From Candidatus Thalassarchaeum betae (GTDB taxonomy: Archaea > Thermoplasmatota > Poseidoniia > Poseidoniales > Thalassarchaeaceae), in assembly GCA_003193925.1 (NCBI GenBank), contig PSPG01000003.1, forward strand, positions 40,797 through 104,796: DNA of 64,000 bases, read 5' to 3'. A model generated the notes under the pieces. That model worked only from the letters and a program-made list of their open reading frames with translations, ran no database searches and was not told where the DNA came from. Shown in pieces: positions 42,003-64,000 of the stretch. A program made the position numbers and the translations under genes. How positions within the stretch are numbered: the stretch's first letter is position 1; every line of letters begins with the position of its first letter.

Positions 42003-42087
42003 TGGTGCAGGGGACAGGATTCGAACCTGCGAAGCACTACGCACAGCGACCTGAACGCTGCCCCTTTGACCACTCGGGAACCCCTGC
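42003..42087 (-). tRNA. tRNA-Leu (anticodon CAG), CCA encoded
   Basis: Reverse complement GCAGGGGTTCCCGAGTGGTCAAAGGGGCAGCGTT-CAG-GTCGCTG...GTTCGAATCCTGTCCCCTGCACCA; 85 nt with long variable arm. Confidence 0.97.
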
Positions 42088-42163: not shown

Positions 42164-42248
42164 TGGTGCAGGGGACAGGATTTGAACCTGCGAAGCACTA
42201 CGCACTGGGACCTAAACCCAGCCCCTTTGACCACTCGGGAACCCCTGC
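42164..42248 (-). tRNA. tRNA-Leu (anticodon TAG), CCA encoded
   Basis: Reverse complement GCAGGGGTTCCCGAGTGGTCAAAGGGGCTGGGTT-TAG-GTCCCAG...GTTCAAATCCTGTCCCCTGCACCA; 85 nt. Confidence 0.97.
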
Positions 42249-44494: not shown

Positions 44495-46495
44495 ATGGCC
44501 CGGGACACCAGTGCCTCTGCTCTCGCCCTTCTGCTGGTACTCTCGATGGTGGCATCGACGATGCCGCTCGGGTCCGGACCTGAGCATCTGGACGAGGGAG
44601 GCCTGCGTATGGAGCAAATCGGAGGAGGAGGTTCGCTCGAGGAGCAATGTGGCTCAATAACCTTCGAGGACATGTTCGCCTACACCAAAGCAGACTTCGT
44701 GATTCACATCAATGACGACTGGCAGAGCGCGGAGGTACAGGCGGTCGCCTGGGTGAACTGGACGCTCGCCGATGACCTCAGAGAGACGATGGACGAGTTC
44801 ATGGCTGAACTCGACCCCAACAACGGCGGTGACGGCTGGCTCTCCACCGACGAGCGGGAGTTCTTTCGGGCGCTCGCGAGCGAGTGCATCGAGCACACGC
44901 TGACCAGAATAGGGTTCAGGGATGGCTCGTACCACAGAGGTGGCGAGGGAGTCAGTTGGAAGAACACCAGCTGGGAGGAGGACGGAGTCGAGATTGAGGA
45001 GTTCAATCTGGTTCCCCTAAGGCACTCACAGATCCGCGACTGCACCTCCGCCTTTGGCAACGACTGCGAGGAGGTGCCTGTCGCACCCGATGAGAACCGC
45101 GACTGCGACACCGACATCCCGCCCTCGGATGGCGTCGACGAATGCAGGGCCATACTGTGGATGAACTCCACGTTGACTATCCCCGGAGTCTCTGACGGCA
45201 ACCAGTTCACTCTTGCAATCAACGCTTCCAACATGAGCAACGCCGCTCTGGAGTTCACCTTCCCAATCACTCCAGACCTCCGCCTAGACATGTGGGAGGA
45301 GTGCGAGGGGCGCGACGTGAGTTACGAGGAGGAAGCGGTGATCCCAGCCCCCATCCGTGGGACCTGTCTGGGTGATGGTTCCTCCACGTACACGCTCGTG
45401 GAGAACGACAACGGTGGTCTGACGATGACCATCCTGCCTGATGCAGATACTCTTGATTGGCCCTCGGGAGAGGACCTGTTCGCAGACTTCACCACCGCCC
45501 CCATACCCGTCGACAATCCGCCTGAGTGGACTGACGCTGCGCCTCCTGAGGGCGCCTGGTTCCCCTCTCCCAGCGGCGGGCAGCACGTCTGGGCGACCTG
45601 GCATGATGTCTCCACGTGGTTCACCGATGAGGGCAGCGTCACCCAGTTGGACATTCAGTGCACCGGCGCGTCCTCGCTCCAACTCAGCGAGGGCGCGGAC
45701 CGCTCATGGTGGGCAGAGATCCCGCGTGGAAGCACCGGAGAGGTGACCTGCCAAGCCGAGGACTCTGCCGGACAGAGCACTGGAAACAGAACCTGGAACC
45801 TCGGTGTCCCGTTCTCACTCTCGACATCCAGCCAGACGCTAGTCGACCCTCATCCGATTACCCTCAGCCCGACATCCGACTGGCCCGATCTAACCGTCGA
45901 GGTCGGACTGGTGCAGGATGGCCAGTCCTTGCCGACCTCCTCAGTCACTTTCACCGGGGAGGTCACATTGGACCTCGTGTCTTTTAACACGGTACCAGGG
46001 CCGGTGCAAGTCTGGGTCAGCGTCCAAGGTACCGACGTCTACTCGATGGAGCATGTGTATGAGCTCGGTCTGACTAAGGAGAGTTCTCCCCCGTTGCTCA
46101 CGATCACATCGACGGAATGGGACGGGTCAGAGTGGTCGATGCAGGGGCAGTATAGCGACCCTGACGGCGAAGCCGTCACCTTCACGATGGCAATAGACGG
46201 CTCCGCTACAGGCTCGGTTAGCTCGAGCGGCAACACTTGGTCGACCCCTAGAATAAACTTCGAGCTCTGGGATGAGGGAGAGCACGTGGTCACCATCGAG
46301 GGCTGTGATGCTTCGAGCAAATGCTCCAGTGTTTCGCAGACTGTGAACAACTCTCACCTCTTCGATGAGCCAGAACCAAACCCTCTCCCTACCACTGTTG
46401 ATGATGGAGGCAGTGGCTTGCTACCTGCTGCTGGCCTACCTGCACTCATCATTGCTGTAGTCGGTGCCCTCATGTATGGTAGGCGGCGCGGCTGA
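44495..46495 (+). CDS. Secreted acidic Cys-containing surface protein with Ig-like C-terminal domains and PGF-CTERM-like tail
   Basis: Signal peptide MARDTSASALALLLVLS; YSDPDGEAVTF Ig/cadherin-like motif; C-terminal LPAAG + TM + RRRG. Confidence 0.75.
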   Translation: MARDTSASALALLLVLSMVASTMPLGSGPEHLDEGGLRMEQIGGGGSLEEQCGSITFEDMFAYTKADFVIHINDDWQSAEVQAVAWVNWTLADDLRETMDEFMAELDPNNGGDGWLSTDEREFFRALASECIEHTLTRIGFRDGSYHRGGEGVSWKNTSWEEDGVEIEEFNLVPLRHSQIRDCTSAFGNDCEEVPVAPDENRDCDTDIPPSDGVDECRAILWMNSTLTIPGVSDGNQFTLAINASNMSNAALEFTFPITPDLRLDMWEECEGRDVSYEEEAVIPAPIRGTCLGDGSSTYTLVENDNGGLTMTILPDADTLDWPSGEDLFADFTTAPIPVDNPPEWTDAAPPEGAWFPSPSGGQHVWATWHDVSTWFTDEGSVTQLDIQCTGASSLQLSEGADRSWWAEIPRGSTGEVTCQAEDSAGQSTGNRTWNLGVPFSLSTSSQTLVDPHPITLSPTSDWPDLTVEVGLVQDGQSLPTSSVTFTGEVTLDLVSFNTVPGPVQVWVSVQGTDVYSMEHVYELGLTKESSPPLLTITSTEWDGSEWSMQGQYSDPDGEAVTFTMAIDGSATGSVSSSGNTWSTPRINFELWDEGEHVVTIEGCDASSKCSSVSQTVNNSHLFDEPEPNPLPTTVDDGGSGLLPAAGLPALIIAVVGALMYGRRRG

Positions 46496-46498
46496 GCC

Positions 46499-47389
46499 AT
46501 GAGTTTCTCCGGGACCGTGTCAAAGGCTTCGCATGAAGGAGGTCTTCTCATTGCCTTCGAGGGACGAGCCCCCAGACTCGGCGCCGCCATTCGGGTGGTC
46601 GGCGGCAAGACGCTGGGGCAGGTCGAAACGGTGATTGGCTCCGCCGGCGACCCGCTGATTCACATTCACCCTCTGTCAGAGGACGTGGATGCAAGGAGCG
46701 CCATCGGCTCGCCGGTCGAAATCGCCCCCCGTGGGAGAGCGAACCGAGGCCACCGGGACAAGCGACCCGGACCGGACCGCTTCAGGAGGGAGCGAGGGGG
46801 CAAGTCCGATGGCGACAGGGACTCGCACATGAGGCCGGGCGACTGGCGCTGCCCGAAATGCAAAAACCACAATTACGCAAACAAGAAGGTCTGCAATCGA
46901 ACTGGTTGTGAAGAGCCGAAACCGAGAGGCGGTGGCGGAAGAGACAGGGATTCTCGTAGCTATCGATCTAGTAACTCGGGTGGTTTCAGAGACTCAAATA
47001 TGAAGCCGGGCGACTGGCGCTGCCCGAAATGCAAAAACCGCAATTTCGCAAACAAGAAGGTCTGCAATCGAACTGGTTGTGAAGAGCCGAAACCGAGAGG
47101 CGGTGGCGGAAGAGGCGGGGATTCTCGTGGCCATCGATCTAGTAACTCGAGTGGTTTCAGAGACTCAAATATGAAGCCAGGGGACTGGAATTGCCCGAAG
47201 TGCAACAACCACAATTACGCGAGACGGGACGTTTGCAACCGCTGCGACACGAGAAAACCTGTGCCTGGGAGAGGATCCAAGACGACACCTCGGAGAGCGC
47301 GCAGACCCCACACTCGTATGAATTGGAAAGGGAAGGGGCCTTCCAAAGGTAGGAGGAACACACCTGCCAGAGGCGGAAGAGGTCGCTGA
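46499..47389 (+). CDS. Gar1-like H/ACA RNP subunit fused to three RanBP2-type zinc fingers and RGG-rich linkers
   Basis: N-terminal ~78 aa fit the archaeal Gar1 pattern (G.V....G.LI......P.LG..I....K.LG.V..V.G....P.I.I.P); three GDWxCxxCxNxN(Y/F)AxxxxCNR(xx)C fingers. Confidence 0.8.
   Translation: MSFSGTVSKASHEGGLLIAFEGRAPRLGAAIRVVGGKTLGQVETVIGSAGDPLIHIHPLSEDVDARSAIGSPVEIAPRGRANRGHRDKRPGPDRFRRERGGKSDGDRDSHMRPGDWRCPKCKNHNYANKKVCNRTGCEEPKPRGGGGRDRDSRSYRSSNSGGFRDSNMKPGDWRCPKCKNRNFANKKVCNRTGCEEPKPRGGGGRGGDSRGHRSSNSSGFRDSNMKPGDWNCPKCNNHNYARRDVCNRCDTRKPVPGRGSKTTPRRARRPHTRMNWKGKGPSKGRRNTPARGGRGR
46829..47170 (+). repeat. Near-identical 171-bp tandem repeat (2 copies), followed by a diverged third finger from 47171
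   Basis: Units start at ATG 46829, 47000 and 47171; the first two differ at only a handful of bases. Confidence 0.95.
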
Positions 47390-47442
47390 TTCGGAATTTC
47401 AGGTACCCCAGCCTTCATGCATTATCAGCGCCAGCGGGTGCT

Positions 47443-48513
47443 ATGGCCAAAAGCGCCGAGTTGACTTGGCTCGATGCGTTGGAGGCCGAGGAGTCGGGCG
47501 ACAGGGAAGCCGCCCTCGAAGCCGCCAAGGAGACGGTGAGAATCGACCCGGGACACTCCGACGGGTGGATGGGGGTGGCCCGCTGGACCCTCCCTCTCGA
47601 GGTCAAGGGCCGGCAGGAGATGCCGAACCTGCAGCAGTCTGCCAAGGCCATGGCCGCCCTTCGTAAGGTCGTGGAGATCGACCCTGAGAATTCCGATGCT
47701 TGGAGGCTTGGAGGGGTGCTGTTGGTCGACCACCTTGGGATGCTTGAAGATGGCATCAGGTGGTGGGAGGCGCGGCGCGTGGTCGCGCCGTACGAGGTAG
47801 TACCCCTCATCGAGCAGATTGGGATACTCGTCAGGCTCGGTTACTACGAGGAGTGCGCCTTTCTCCTCGAGGAGCTGTTCAGCGAGGGTATGGATGCGAC
47901 CGACCGCAAGCAACTGGCCCAGATGGAGGCAGCCAGGCGCATGGTCTCCAGAGCTGCGAAGATGGAGAAGGACGAGATATTCAAGCCCCAGAACCCCAAG
48001 CACCCCCGTTGGGCCATTATCGGGAGGATGAAGAAAAAGAAGCCCATGTCTGACACCTTCTTCCTGTTCACCTTCATCGCTCCGTTGGTATTCATCCTCG
48101 GTACTCTAGCCATGTACGCAATAGGCGACTCGACCTCGGGCAGCATACTCGTCTTCCTGTTCATACTGCTCTCGTTCATGGCGATCTCACGCCTCACATC
48201 GGGTTTTCTGCACAAGCTGAATCGGCATGCTCTCGACCTTGACCGGGCGATAGACGTTGAGACCAGCGCCGGCAAGGTCTGCATTCCCACCTCGATAAGG
48301 GCGAGCAAGCTGTACCTGGCGATGACGAAGAAGCGGATGCCAGGACTCAATGAGAGGCTCGAACTGATCGTCGAGTCGGGGGACAAGCTGTCAATCAGGT
48401 GGAAGCCAGAGATGCCGGACTTTGCCCCCGAGGAAGGCCACGAGAATCCCTGGTGGGCCGAAGGGGATGAGTCGGGGGCAGAGCAGGGGGACCTAGAGCC
48501 GCTCGAGGACTAG
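47443..48513 (+). CDS. TPR-repeat protein with two C-terminal TM helices
   Basis: TVRIDPGHSDGW and VVEIDPENSDAWRLGG TPR-like repeats; hydrophobic hairpin around aa 205-250. Confidence 0.75.
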   Translation: MAKSAELTWLDALEAEESGDREAALEAAKETVRIDPGHSDGWMGVARWTLPLEVKGRQEMPNLQQSAKAMAALRKVVEIDPENSDAWRLGGVLLVDHLGMLEDGIRWWEARRVVAPYEVVPLIEQIGILVRLGYYEECAFLLEELFSEGMDATDRKQLAQMEAARRMVSRAAKMEKDEIFKPQNPKHPRWAIIGRMKKKKPMSDTFFLFTFIAPLVFILGTLAMYAIGDSTSGSILVFLFILLSFMAISRLTSGFLHKLNRHALDLDRAIDVETSAGKVCIPTSIRASKLYLAMTKKRMPGLNERLELIVESGDKLSIRWKPEMPDFAPEEGHENPWWAEGDESGAEQGDLEPLED

Positions 48514-63924: not shown

Positions 63925-64000
63925 AGTCCCTTAGTGTAGTGGTCCATCATACGAGACTCTGGATCTCGTGACCCTGGTTCGAATCCGGGAGGGACTACCA
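63925..64000 (+). tRNA. tRNA-Gln (anticodon CTG), CCA encoded
   Basis: AGTCCCT...CGAGA-CT-CTG-GA-TCTCG...GGTTCGAATCC..AGGGACT-A-CCA; 76 nt with an A1-U72 pair typical of archaeal tRNA-Gln. Confidence 0.97.

Follow-up and report, generated by a model that had tools for sequence, protein, structure and literature searches.

In the 64,000-nucleotide stretch of contig PSPG01000003.1 of Candidatus Thalassarchaeum betae analysed here (the window), one gene encodes a protein that is best read, with a probability of about 0.7, as the Gar1 subunit of the H/ACA ribonucleoprotein (RNP) carrying an added RNA-tethering tail. The gene would be the archaeon's single Gar1, seated on the catalytic domain of Cbf5 in the H/ACA RNP (Cbf5–Nop10–L7Ae–guide RNA). 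In Poseidoniales, the archaeal Gar1 of 75–90 aa appears to have acquired, on its C-terminal side, a long extension that is disordered and strongly basic and contains RG/RGG motifs. RanBP2-type fingers are embedded in this extension in most members of the order, and their number, 0–4, would have changed via tandem duplication.

Organization of the gene and its product

The position of the open reading frame (ORF) and the order of its parts agree with the initial annotation, which described an N-terminal domain, three fingers, R/G/S/D linkers and an RGGRGR end (Table 1). The predicted model has a beads-on-a-string layout, with folded blocks at residues 1–79, 108–144, 166–201 and 223–258 and predicted disorder (pLDDT below 50) at residues 80–107, 145–165, 202–222 and 259–294. 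The C-terminal 217 residues (80–296), which close with ...ARGGRGR, have a net charge of +41 and a pI of 11.3. At E ≤ 1e-3, a search with the 296-aa protein returned 247 homologues; among those listed, the ones whose N-terminus is intact begin with MSF(S/E)G. In the protein atlas, all clusters matched by the Gar1-finger protein were archaeal, labelled RanBP2-type or "hypothetical", and of its own kind.

Table 1 Features of the Gar1-finger gene, in positions of the window
Feature	Position	Strand	Description
Whole CDS	46499..47389	+	ATG start, 296 codons and a stop; Gar1 core followed by three RanBP2 zinc fingers with basic, disordered linkers and a tail
Gar1 beta-barrel, divergent, predicted Cbf5-binding core	46499..46735	+	Residues 1–79; profile, fold, docking
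Linker 1, basic R/G/D	46736..46819	+	Residues 80–107; pLDDT <50; net charge +6, pI 11.7
Zinc finger 1, RanBP2-type (DWRCPKCKNHNYANKKVCNRTGC)	46820..46930	+	Residues 108–144; PF00641; N19/K20, CX4C ending
Linker 2, G/R/S/D	46931..46993	+	Residues 145–165; pLDDT <50, composition
Zinc finger 2, near-copy of finger 1	46994..47101	+	Residues 166–201; PF00641
Linker 3, G/R/S (GGGRGGDSRG...)	47102..47164	+	Residues 202–222; pLDDT <50, composition
Zinc finger 3 (DWNCPKCNNHNYARRDVCNRC), canonical CX2C, full ZRANB2-type ssRNA-contact signature	47165..47272	+	Residues 223–258; best PF00641 stretch
Strongly basic tail, net +14, ends RGGRGR	47273..47386	+	Residues 259–296; pLDDT <50; conserved R-x-R-R-P...R..W stretch
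DNA tandem repeat, period 171 nt	46829..47220	+	2.3 copies, 92% matches; 57 aa = one finger plus one linker

The N-terminal domain as a divergent Gar1 barrel

The N-terminal domain of about 79 aa is conserved: 25 alignment columns do not vary among 28 relatives. Its matches to curated Gar1 models all fall below the cut-offs: PF04410 scores the barrel at E 0.062 and 13.5 bits (cut-off 29.3), the NCBIfam Gar1 model NF009631 at E 0.0079 and 16.4 bits (cut-off 139), and NF009632 at 13 bits (cut-off 107). These sub-cut-off Gar1 models are the sole non-finger families matched by the protein. PF04410 was not listed in the Pfam scan of the full-length protein, and a six-frame search of the genome gave no match to it at E ≤ 10. 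Support for the archaeal "Gar1 pattern" claimed in the initial annotation therefore had to come from profile and fold. Searched against PDB sequences, a profile built from 30 N-terminal relatives matched P. furiosus Gar1 (2hvy_B) with E 5.4e-5; five of the six PDB sequences at E ≤ 10 were Gar1, yeast 3u28_C included. PF04410 was matched by 23 of the 30 family members (best E 1.4e-5), and no other Pfam family was matched.

The AF2 model of residues 1–85 (pLDDT 91.2) is an all-beta barrel with six strands and one short helix. When this model was compared with the PDB by Foldseek, the 13 entries listed through rank 14 were all Gar1 chains (2ey4, 2hvy, 7trc, 7bgb, 3u28, 9g25, 9yfl, 9yfm, 8oue and 7v9a) from archaeal, yeast, human and insect H/ACA RNPs, with TMq of 0.68–0.74 and a probability of 1.00, while Naf1 occurred at ranks 21 and 41 only. 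These top entries bear out the expected Gar1-type fold. The profile and the predicted fold support the reading of residues 1–79 as a divergent Gar1 beta-barrel. The claim of an archaeal Gar1 N-terminus thus falls short by the curated models and agrees with the profile, the predicted fold and the in silico dock described below.

Predicted docking on Cbf5 and the H/ACA set of the genome

The genome (1.48 Mb, 91.8% complete, GC-rich) encodes Cbf5 (contig 16, 307.9 bits), Nop10 (contig 6, 43.2 bits) and L7Ae-family genes, and at this completeness the ORF of Table 1 is its only Gar1-like sequence. Docking on the host Cbf5, which had been put forward as a check of the Gar1 assignment, succeeded in silico: the barrel was placed on the genome's own Cbf5 with ipSAE values of 0.84, 0.84 and 0.85 in three runs, against 0.00 for the best of three controls. 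The partner pLDDT was at least 87, and the contact agreement between runs was 100%. Of 80 solved complexes, 58 reach this ipSAE mark, as do 2 of 110 mismatched pairs; the two counts apply only approximately here because the prediction used our own alignment. Gar1–Cbf5 is a textbook pair with many solved complexes, and the docking pass, which may reflect a likeness remembered by the model, supports rather than demonstrates binding by this copy. The predicted Cbf5 contacts comprise residues 11–13, 17, 24–27, 44–53 and 55, and eight of these 19 interface residues (S11, H12, L17, P25, L27, V45, G47 and H55) are invariant in the 28 relatives. Collectively, we consider it very probable that the protein is a Gar1 orthologue that binds Cbf5. 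In the 64-kb window, the Rfam search gave three tRNAs only and no H/ACA guide RNA.

Zinc fingers and their RNA-contact positions

The three RanBP2-type fingers first reported, including the "x2(4)" variation in the last spacing, were recovered by PF00641 (Zn_ribbon_RanBP) in three stretches at E 1.1e-19 and 69.8 bits (cut-off 27). Each finger also passes the cut-off when scored singly, with 39.5 bits for finger 3 and 28.1 and 27.7 bits for the other two. No further PF00641 match occurs anywhere in the 1.48-Mb genome, which places the three far beyond chance. Finger 3, within which the peptide GDWNCPKCNNHNYARRDVCNRCDTRKP spans residues 228–254, ends C-N-R-C and fits exactly the ligand pattern W-x-C-x2-4-C-x3-N-x6-C-x2-C. 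Fingers 1 and 2 end C-N-R-T-G-C (CX4C), keep the ligand pattern otherwise, and align with positions 1–23 of the 30-position PF00641 model only. Finger 1 is folded in the predicted model, with a block-mean pLDDT of 86–91. Among solved sequences, the nearest are ZNF265/ZRANB2 finger 1 (E 5.6e-5), RanBP2, ZRANB2 finger 2 (2k1p/3g9y, 2.2e-4) and FUS (6g99_B, 5.6e-4), both ZRANB2 alignments involving finger 3; RanBP2 and Nup153 fingers are found among the PDB matches at E 1e-4 to 0.67, and there is no ubiquitin-binding NZF among the 20 PDB matches of the fingers. By sequence, these results support genuine RanBP2 fingers whose nearest solved counterparts are of the ssRNA-binding ZRANB2/FUS kind.

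The position numbering and contact definitions used for the fingers were taken from the available part of PMC6384913, where the ZRANB2-type RNA contacts are W17 stacking, R19/R20 hydrogen bonds and D4. In finger 3, the contact positions D4, N14, N16, Y17, R19, R20 and N24 are all present. Fingers 1 and 2 keep D4, N14, Y/F17 and N24, with N19/K20 in place of R19/R20. In the same part of PMC6384913, a K19/S20 finger showed no RNA binding and R20 was kept in all binders named; fingers 1 and 2, two of the three, may therefore bind RNA weakly, differently or not at all because of their N19/K20. The assignment to the ssRNA-binding RanBP2 subtype thus holds for finger 3, with its full signature, and is doubtful for fingers 1 and 2, which have no Arg pair. 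That at least the last finger binds RNA is probable.

Almost every finger of the family retains D4, N14, N16, aromatic-17 and N24. Among close relatives, D4 occurs in 120/120 last and 152/152 inner fingers, and N16 in 120/120 and 151/152. In the finger-bearing representatives of the wider family, R20 is present in 38/41 last and 26/28 inner fingers, and every finger has F or Y at position 17; the commonest finger of the wider Poseidoniales family reads [A/S]18-[F/W]19-R20.

Basic linkers and tail

The linkers and tail are R/G-rich and predicted to be disordered, and residues 80–296 hold 5 RGG, 10 RG and 8 GR motifs. The low-complexity R/G/S/D character and the RGGRGR end of the "RGG linkers" were accurately described, but their RGG content is modest, and it is richer in some relatives, which carry 14–21 RGG/GGR per protein (e.g. 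P0140 and P0123) or long GGGGDRRGG runs in the tail (L009). Within the tail region, P254 and R266 are invariant in the 28 relatives, and G259, R268 and R273 nearly so. The fibrillarin of the same genome lies in a 259-aa open frame with a Pfam match covering model positions 19–222 of 227, so that it has no GAR arm; hence the genome gives no sign of a coordinated "nucleolar" set. A scan of the whole GC-rich genome for RG-rich ORFs returned mostly off-frame noise and one real match.

Repeat structure and distribution

Repeat units 1 and 2 are identical at 49 of 57 residues. As judged from the sequence, fingers 1 and 2 are a recent 171-nt tandem duplicate, and tandem duplication of the finger-plus-linker unit is evidently the mechanism by which finger number changes. 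Two to three finger matches were counted among nine same-genus genomes, and 0–4 fingers per protein across Poseidoniales. Each finger offers about 25 informative columns, too few for a phylogeny against eukaryotic fingers.

The order, also called Marine Group II, is named in many marine metagenome-assembled genomes. Fingers are present in 167 of 201 Poseidoniales genomes and in 52 of the 61 that are at least 90% complete, and at each of the 11 finger loci inspected in the order, the Gar1 barrel is encoded in frame with the fingers. The barrels of two finger-bearing families are only 32–40% identical to the query barrel. Several genera of the host's family have a Gar1 with a basic tail and no finger (genomes G019, G007 and G025), which indicates that the fingers are dispensable for Gar1 function. 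None of eight genomes of the sister order has the Gar1-finger design. The profile, tuned to the Poseidoniales barrel, detected Gar1 in one of four sister-order genomes, so the other three carry no claim; one sister-order genome has a stand-alone Gar1 of 74 aa. Outside this family, 22 proteins with similar finger arrays were found, and the 14 with a known source are all eukaryotic. The Gar1-finger architecture is order-wide in Poseidoniales and absent from the sister lineages searched. The survey proposed at the outset therefore came out in favour of a design spread through the order, with 0–4 fingers and, where examined, always on Gar1.

Gene neighbourhood and RNA-library contigs

The eight neighbouring ORFs encode, by Pfam, an EF-hand protein, an M28 peptidase, GPDH, FTR1, a surface protein, a TPR protein, an AdoHcy hydrolase and an FG-GAP giant. 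None of the eight has a link to RNA modification by Pfam, and thus the neighbourhood provides no operon argument. The gar1–tfb linkage usual in archaea is seen in genomes G359 and G223 and is absent at this locus. RNA-library contigs from three studies map to the gene; one of them, a 230-nt piece, matches 46519–46748 with zero differences. These data are contigs from four runs, carrying neither transcript ends, strand nor level, and uncovered stretches (e.g. 46388–46431, in all four) are uninformative. DNA can occur in such libraries, so the contigs are a hint of expression and cannot prove transcription.

Comparison with known systems

The protein shares with P. furiosus Gar1 (2EY4, 2HVY, 3HAY) the six-stranded beta-barrel (TM 0.74/0.83, rmsd 2.2–2.4 Å), the place on the Cbf5 catalytic domain, here predicted, and its single copy beside Cbf5, Nop10 and an L7Ae-family gene. 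In contrast, its identity to archaeal Gar1 is 19–20% only, it misses the curated-model cut-offs and its gene lies away from tfb; furthermore, solved archaeal Gar1 chains have 74–104 aa, whereas this protein has an additional 217 residues with three zinc fingers. Eukaryotic Gar1/GAR1 (yeast, 3U28; human telomerase H/ACA lobe, 7TRC) likewise combines the core (TM 0.72–0.73) with an R/G-rich disordered extension. The GAR arms of eukaryotic Gar1 lie on both sides of the core and are not known to contain zinc fingers, while the extension here is confined to the C-terminal side, has a lower RGG density (5 RGG) and includes RanBP2 fingers.

With ZRANB2 (ZNF265; 1N0Z, 2K1P, 3G9Y), a binder of GGU in ssRNA, finger 3 shares D4, N14, N16, aromatic-17, A18, R19, R20 and N24. 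ZRANB2 has two N-terminal fingers, an RS-rich C-terminus and a role in splicing; the present protein has no RS domain, bears its fingers on Gar1, and has N19/K20 and CX4C in fingers 1 and 2. In the FET proteins (FUS, EWS, TAF15), as here, a RanBP2 finger is flanked by RGG-rich disorder, and the [A/S]18-[F/W]19-R20 finger of the wider Poseidoniales family resembles the FUS finger. FET proteins also have an SYGQ-rich prion-like domain. The Pfam scan of the protein gave no RRM or other FET domain, and no SYGQ-rich region is visible in its sequence. Membership of the FET family was rejected, since both the RRM and the SYGQ-rich domain are missing and the likeness covers the RGG-ZnF-RGG module only. 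What remains of the "FET/ZRANB2-like architecture" first proposed is this module and the ZRANB2/FUS-like fingers, without RRM, SYGQ-rich domain or RS domain.

In the available parts of PMC1865073 and PMC11528048, archaeal Gar1, like archaeal sRNPs as a whole, is described as lacking GAR domains, and such arms are treated as an invention of eukaryotes linked to the nucleolus; the latter source also reports phase-separated droplets driven by the GAR-domain proteins Gar1 and Nop1. No description of a Gar1–RanBP2 finger fusion was found in the literature. The parts of PMC7641849, PMC9258230 and the TED preprint that were available do not mention it, and the supplementary lineage-specific families of PMC9258230 might include it. 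The JGI machine annotation of the architecture already reads "Zn-ribbon protein / rRNA processing protein Gar1". The initial statement that no characterisation was known is therefore right for the literature found, but the architecture had been annotated by machine; the design is unpublished rather than unseen.

Possible function of the tail

The barrel would bind Cbf5, as predicted in silico, and the tail would serve as a flexible, multivalent tether for single-stranded RNA. A GGU/GGN-like triplet is the probable target of finger 3, and the linkers, basic and with RGG motifs, may bind RNA without sequence preference. Such a tail could enrich substrate RNA (pre-rRNA, tRNA) around the enzyme or aid substrate loading and release, as has been proposed for the GAR domains of eukaryotic Gar1. 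That it improves substrate capture or turnover by the H/ACA RNP is a tentative suggestion, to which we give slightly less than even odds.

A FUS/EWS/TAF15-like RGG-ZnF-RGG tail might instead act mainly as a condensate scaffold, clustering H/ACA particles and nascent rRNA into a nucleolus-like, RNA-dependent body, with capture by the single particle being secondary. The multivalent layout of three folded fingers, disordered R/G-rich linkers and a net charge of +41 would suit such a scaffold, as would the richer RGG tails of the relatives L009, P0140 and P0123 and the droplets that Gar1 and Nop1 form (PMC11528048, as far as available). However, only five RGG motifs occur in this Gar1 and the fibrillarin of the same genome has no GAR arm, so we regard clustering as the main effect as unlikely. 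The scaffold and the tether overlap, and the difference lies in the main effect. The finger-linker repeat could also have spread by replication slippage and be tolerated without a selected function, given that the repeat is recent (92% DNA identity), that copy number varies from 0 to 4 and that some genera are finger-less. Against such near-neutral expansion, two families with barrels only 32–40% identical to the query have kept the zinc ligands and RNA-contact positions of the fingers nearly unchanged. This conservation across divergent barrels argues for purifying selection, and leaves the neutral explanation with hardly any credit.

Two further possibilities concern the partners of the protein. 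The fingers may be protein-binding modules, like the NZF fingers of Npl4/TAB2 that bind ubiquitin or those of Nup153/RanBP2 that bind Ran, and recruit the RNP to a partner such as a SAMP conjugate or a ribosomal protein. The RanBP2 and Nup153 fingers among the PDB matches and the missing R19/R20 pair of fingers 1 and 2 are compatible with this, but the best matches are the RNA-binding ZRANB2 and FUS, zero of the 20 matches is an NZF, and the family keeps D4, N14, N16, aromatic-17 and N24 in nearly all fingers and, more widely, R20 in most. Archaea are not known to have Ran, which counts against the Ran-type function; at the positions corresponding to the T-F/phi ubiquitin motif of NZF, the fingers have K/N-N and the motif is not visible. 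Protein binding as the role of the fingers is accordingly very unlikely. A repurposed barrel, working outside the H/ACA RNP as a lone RNA chaperone, a ribosome-assembly factor or a Naf1-like assembly chaperone, would explain a sequence so divergent that no curated Gar1 model scores it above its cut-off, and the absence of the gar1–tfb linkage. Yet the genome has retained Cbf5, Nop10 and an L7Ae-family gene and offers no other Gar1-like gene, the most conserved residues of the protein fall within the predicted Cbf5 interface, and Gar1 chains outrank Naf1 in the fold search, which makes such repurposing highly improbable. A Gar1 subunit with an RNA-tethering tail remains the preferred reading.

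Implications for Poseidoniales

The basic picture of H/ACA catalysis is unaffected by the finding. A more far-reaching version holds that the Poseidoniales H/ACA particle carries a eukaryote-type RNA-binding/condensation module (RGG plus ZRANB2/FUS-type fingers, probably captured from a marine eukaryote) that concentrates particles and nascent rRNA in a nucleolus-like, RNA-dependent assembly. We consider this doubtful, an outside chance; if true, non-Asgard ocean archaea would have re-invented, independently and in a prokaryote, the GAR-domain logic that eukaryotic snoRNPs follow. The only Gar1 of Poseidoniales, with its R/G-rich tail and fingers of the type by which eukaryotic splicing factors read GGU, contrasts with the archaeal Gar1 without GAR domains of the reviews, in so far as these were available (PMC1865073, PMC11528048). 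Cbf5–Nop10–Gar1 with and without the tail would be a small, recombinantly tractable system for the contribution of RGG arms and ssRNA fingers to the H/ACA enzyme. In the order itself, the protein would present a clean case of a "eukaryotic" RNA-binding finger that has become fixed in a core machine of a prokaryote while its copy number is still changing.

The N-terminal barrel is the Gar1 of the archaeon

The initial annotation had read the N-terminus of the 296-aa protein as an archaeal Gar1, and comparison at the level of the family bears this out. Residues 1-85, searched against 1.84 billion representative proteins, retrieved 107 at E ≤ 1e-3. A profile of 30 relatives' barrels matches Pyrococcus furiosus Gar1 (2hvy_B; E 5.4e-5), and five of the six PDB sequences found with this profile at E ≤ 10 are Gar1, yeast Gar1 among them. 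Scanned singly, 23 of the 30 relatives match PF04410 and none matches another family. The AlphaFold model of residues 1-85 (pLDDT 91.2) has six strands, and in the Foldseek search against the PDB the thirteen rows listed down to rank 14 are without exception Gar1 chains (TM 0.68-0.74), taken from H/ACA particles of archaea, yeast, human, and insect, with Naf1 at ranks 21 and 41. The archaeon's own genome (1.48 Mb, 23 contigs, 91.8% complete) encodes the H/ACA partners Cbf5 (307.9 bits), Nop10, and L7Ae-family proteins, and this ORF is its only Gar1-like sequence. Scanned directly, the N-terminus gives weak matches, with 13.5 bits for PF04410, against a cut-off of 29.3 (E 0.062), and E 0.0079 for NF009631; the six-frame search of the genome returned no PF04410 match at E ≤ 10.

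The initial annotation had proposed a docking test on the host Cbf5, and such docking is predicted. Modelled as a complex with the Cbf5 encoded in its genome, the barrel scored 0.84, 0.84, and 0.85 (best control 0.00), with partner pLDDT of at least 87 and contacts agreeing 100% between runs. Among solved complexes 58 of 80 attain this mark, and among mismatched pairs 2 of 110, counts that are only approximate because our own alignment was used. Eight of the 19 residues of the predicted interface are invariant among 28 relatives. Because many structures of the textbook pair Gar1-Cbf5 have been solved, this result shows likeness and is no proof that this copy binds. Fold, profile, genome context, and in-silico docking point to Gar1, and the curated score cut-offs are not reached. 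We conclude that the protein is the organism's Gar1 orthologue.

Layout of the fusion protein and its neighborhood

Pfam places three RanBP2-type zinc fingers behind the barrel (PF00641, E 1.1e-19, 69.8 bits, cut-off 27), and these are the only three PF00641 places in the six-frame genome search. In the full-length AlphaFold model, with an alignment of 28 relatives as input, folded beads at residues 1-79, 108-144, 166-201, and 223-258 alternate with segments of pLDDT below 50 (80-107, 145-165, 202-222, and 259-294). The barrel is slightly acidic (net charge -1), and residues 80-296 carry a net charge of +41 (pI 11.3) with 5 RGG, 10 RG, and 8 GR. A tandem repeat, whose first two units share 49 of 57 residues at the protein level, covers finger and linker together, and computation supports that the finger copy number changes via tandem duplication. 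The initial description of ORF, fingers, and linkers is therefore accurate to the residue, and a Gar1 barrel followed by three real RanBP2 fingers and disordered basic linkers is supported by computation.

Features in the window (positions of the 64,000-nt stretch)
Feature	Position	Strand	Details
EF-hand protein, 904 aa	37948-40665	-	several EF-hand pairs, E 2.8e-22
tRNA gene	42006-42087	-	Rfam
tRNA gene	42167-42248	-	Rfam
Upstream ORF, 682 aa	44447-46495	+	stop 3 nt before gar1 start; membrane-anchored
Gar1-finger gene, 296 codons	46499-47389	+	start ATG
RNA-library piece, run X6	46519-46748		230 nt, 0 differences
RNA-library pieces, runs X1, X2, X5	46814-47591
Tandem repeat	46829-47220		period 171 nt (finger + linker); 2.3 copies, 92% matches
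Segment with PRRARRPHTR	47273-47386
Giant ORF, 2141 aa	49839-56267	-	Pfam: FG-GAP-like repeat only
tRNA gene	63925-63997	+	Rfam

Behind the last finger lies a conserved basic peptide (the window and loci L012, L013, L014, L018, and L029). Its form in family f3 of the order is (F)RRARGK..GHAHNR and in genome G005 RRGKSAGHAHKR, and PRRARRPHTR in the window is possibly related. This peptide may be a short docking motif.

RNA-library contigs from three studies overlie the gene; as such contigs may include DNA and transcript ends are not visible in them, they hint only weakly at its expression.

The upstream ORF has no Pfam match. In one relative (P0138), the C-terminal part of such an ORF and the Gar1 barrel were called as one protein spanning the same junction, and the gene order is therefore conserved. 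Stand-alone Gar1 genes lie directly upstream of tfb, the transcription factor B gene, and overlap it by a few bases in G359 of the sister order (74 aa; L015 857-1734, minus strand) and in G223, another Thermoplasmatota genome (88 aa; L016 1399-2648, plus strand). This linkage is absent in the window, where gar1 has a surface-protein gene and a gene for a TPR membrane protein as neighbors. The giant ORF is probably a surface protein. The EF-hand protein also has a weak LDL-receptor class A match (E 8.3e-4), an unusual pairing in an archaeon. Rfam matched only the three tRNA genes in the window.

The fusion is conserved across Poseidoniales

At E ≤ 1e-3 a word-indexed protein search found 247 homologues. 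Counted by pattern in the query and 120 listed homologues, some of which are fragments, two fingers are found in 70 proteins, three in 34, one in 13, four in 2, and eight and none in 1 each. The genome collection has 201 members of the order, and 167 of them match PF00641 (70/99 in family f1, 0/2 in f2, 96/99 in f3), including 52 of the 61 that are at least 90% complete, and the barrel is in frame with the fingers at all 11 finger loci read. This survey, which the initial annotation had proposed, supports by computation an architecture conserved order-wide. In a phylum sample of 301 genomes (E ≤ 1e-5), the 54 with matches are the window's own, 52 in f1 and f3, and one elsewhere; none of 8 genomes of the sister-order family f4 and 1 of 237 others matched. 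This last match, in G223, was rejected as a membrane protein whose single finger is unrelated. Some genera of the family to which the window belongs are without fingers and retain a basic tail: G019, G007, and G025 (149-164 aa), G005, with GGDRRG repeats, and G009, with one degenerate finger.

Relatives in named genomes occupy 171 loci, of which 80 were kept. Archaeal titles account for 79 of these, the best being Candidatus Thalassarchaeum (70-73% identical), and others Thalassarchaeaceae, Poseidoniaceae, Poseidonia, Poseidoniales, Marine Group II, or the generic Euryarchaeota, Methanobacteriota, or Thermoplasmatota. The remaining title is a Rhodobacteraceae bacterium MAG (L056, 12.9-kb contig) with a Gar1-finger gene of Poseidoniales type that is 51% identical over residues 1-288; the contig is probably archaeal and mis-binned. 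In genome G080, contigs C37 and C38 each carry a Gar1-finger gene (L017 and L018, with 2 and 3 fingers). The two genes differ and are either true paralogues or a strain mix in the bin.

The last finger carries the RNA-contact signature

Among the 20 PDB matches of the C-terminal 192 residues, the closest is finger 1 of ZNF265/ZRANB2 (1n0z_A, E 5.6e-5); RanBP2, ZRANB2 finger 2 (2k1p/3g9y, E 2.2e-4), and FUS (6g99_B, E 5.6e-4) also rank at the top, and Nup153, RBM10, YAF2, and RBM5 lower. The cited account of ZRANB2 ZF2 describes an aromatic at position 17 stacking between bases and a hydrogen-bond network of R19 and R20, and gives D4 for roughly 80% of the fingers that putatively bind RNA; a K19/S20 finger failed to bind RNA, and RBM5 with K19/R20 binds (PMC6384913). 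Finger 3 matches fully (D4, N14, N16, Y17, A18, R19, R20, N24). Fingers 1 and 2 have D4, N14, N16, Y/F17, A18, N19, K20, and N24, with CX4C rather than CX2C as the last ligand spacing. All three are RanBP2 fingers, and the full signature of the ssRNA-binding subtype assigned by the initial annotation is present in finger 3 and not in fingers 1 and 2. On sequence, RNA binding by the last finger is thus a well-grounded prediction, and the duplicated inner ones may or may not bind.

Among close relatives, inner fingers have N19/K20 with CX4C (131 to 140 of 152), and R20 is present in 90 of 120 last fingers. A FUS-like finger is usual in finger-bearing representatives of the wider family, with F/Y17 in all. 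Of the 41 last fingers there, 29 have [F/W]19 and 38 have R20, a residue shared by 26 of the 28 inner ones.

Similar arrays occur in 22 longer proteins, none with a Gar1 barrel; all 14 with named sources are eukaryotic (protist transcriptomes, Mortierella-type fungi, a ciliate, a chytrid, a green alga, an insect, and a plant). Two proteins, P0228 (612 aa) and P0229 (561 aa), have 11-12 RanBP2 fingers with the unusual C-N-R-R-x-C (CX4C) ending of fingers 1 and 2; the variant spacing is therefore found outside the archaeal family as well.

Comparison with known systems and possible role

The protein resembles the RGG-ZnF-RGG module of FET proteins. RS and SYGQ domains are known for the ZRANB2 and FET families. 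Membership in either was rejected, because no RRM was matched and RS and SYGQ domains are not visible in the sequence. A crude scan of the genome found clear in-frame RGG-rich tails only in Gar1 and in a 402-aa open frame beyond the window (contig C1, 2755-3960, plus strand), which has hydrophobic segments and a long terminal (S/R)GGG(R)SGGGGG repeat (RRRIGGGGSRGGGRSGGGGGSRGGG...).

Archaeal Gar1 or archaeal sRNPs are described as being without GAR domains in two papers (PMC1865073; PMC11528048). Neither a Gar1-RanBP2 fusion nor RanBP2 fingers of Poseidoniales are described in the main texts covered by our full-text literature search, in keeping with the initial annotation, though JGI already applies to members the label 'predicted nucleic-acid-binding Zn-ribbon protein / rRNA processing protein Gar1'; NCBI uses 'zinc finger protein [Candidatus Poseidoniales archaeon]' or 'hypothetical protein'. 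The fusion is real, lineage-wide, and already machine-annotated, with no description in the literature searched, and its function is putative.

Less likely readings are that the tail serves as a condensate scaffold, that the fingers bind proteins, although no ubiquitin-binding NZF is among the 20 PDB matches, that the barrel has been repurposed, or that the array is a neutral expansion. The mechanism that we propose is an H/ACA one, in which the barrel would sit at the usual Gar1 site on Cbf5 and the tail would tether ssRNA in a flexible and multivalent manner. Finger 3 would likely recognize GGU/GGN specifically, and the basic and RG/RGG segments would bind RNA non-specifically. According to a review, RNA cross-links of mammalian Gar1 may stem from its eukaryote-specific GAR domains or from transient association with substrate RNA at loading or release (PMC1865073). 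The tail of the archaeal protein may bring substrate RNA to the particle, or aid its loading and release.
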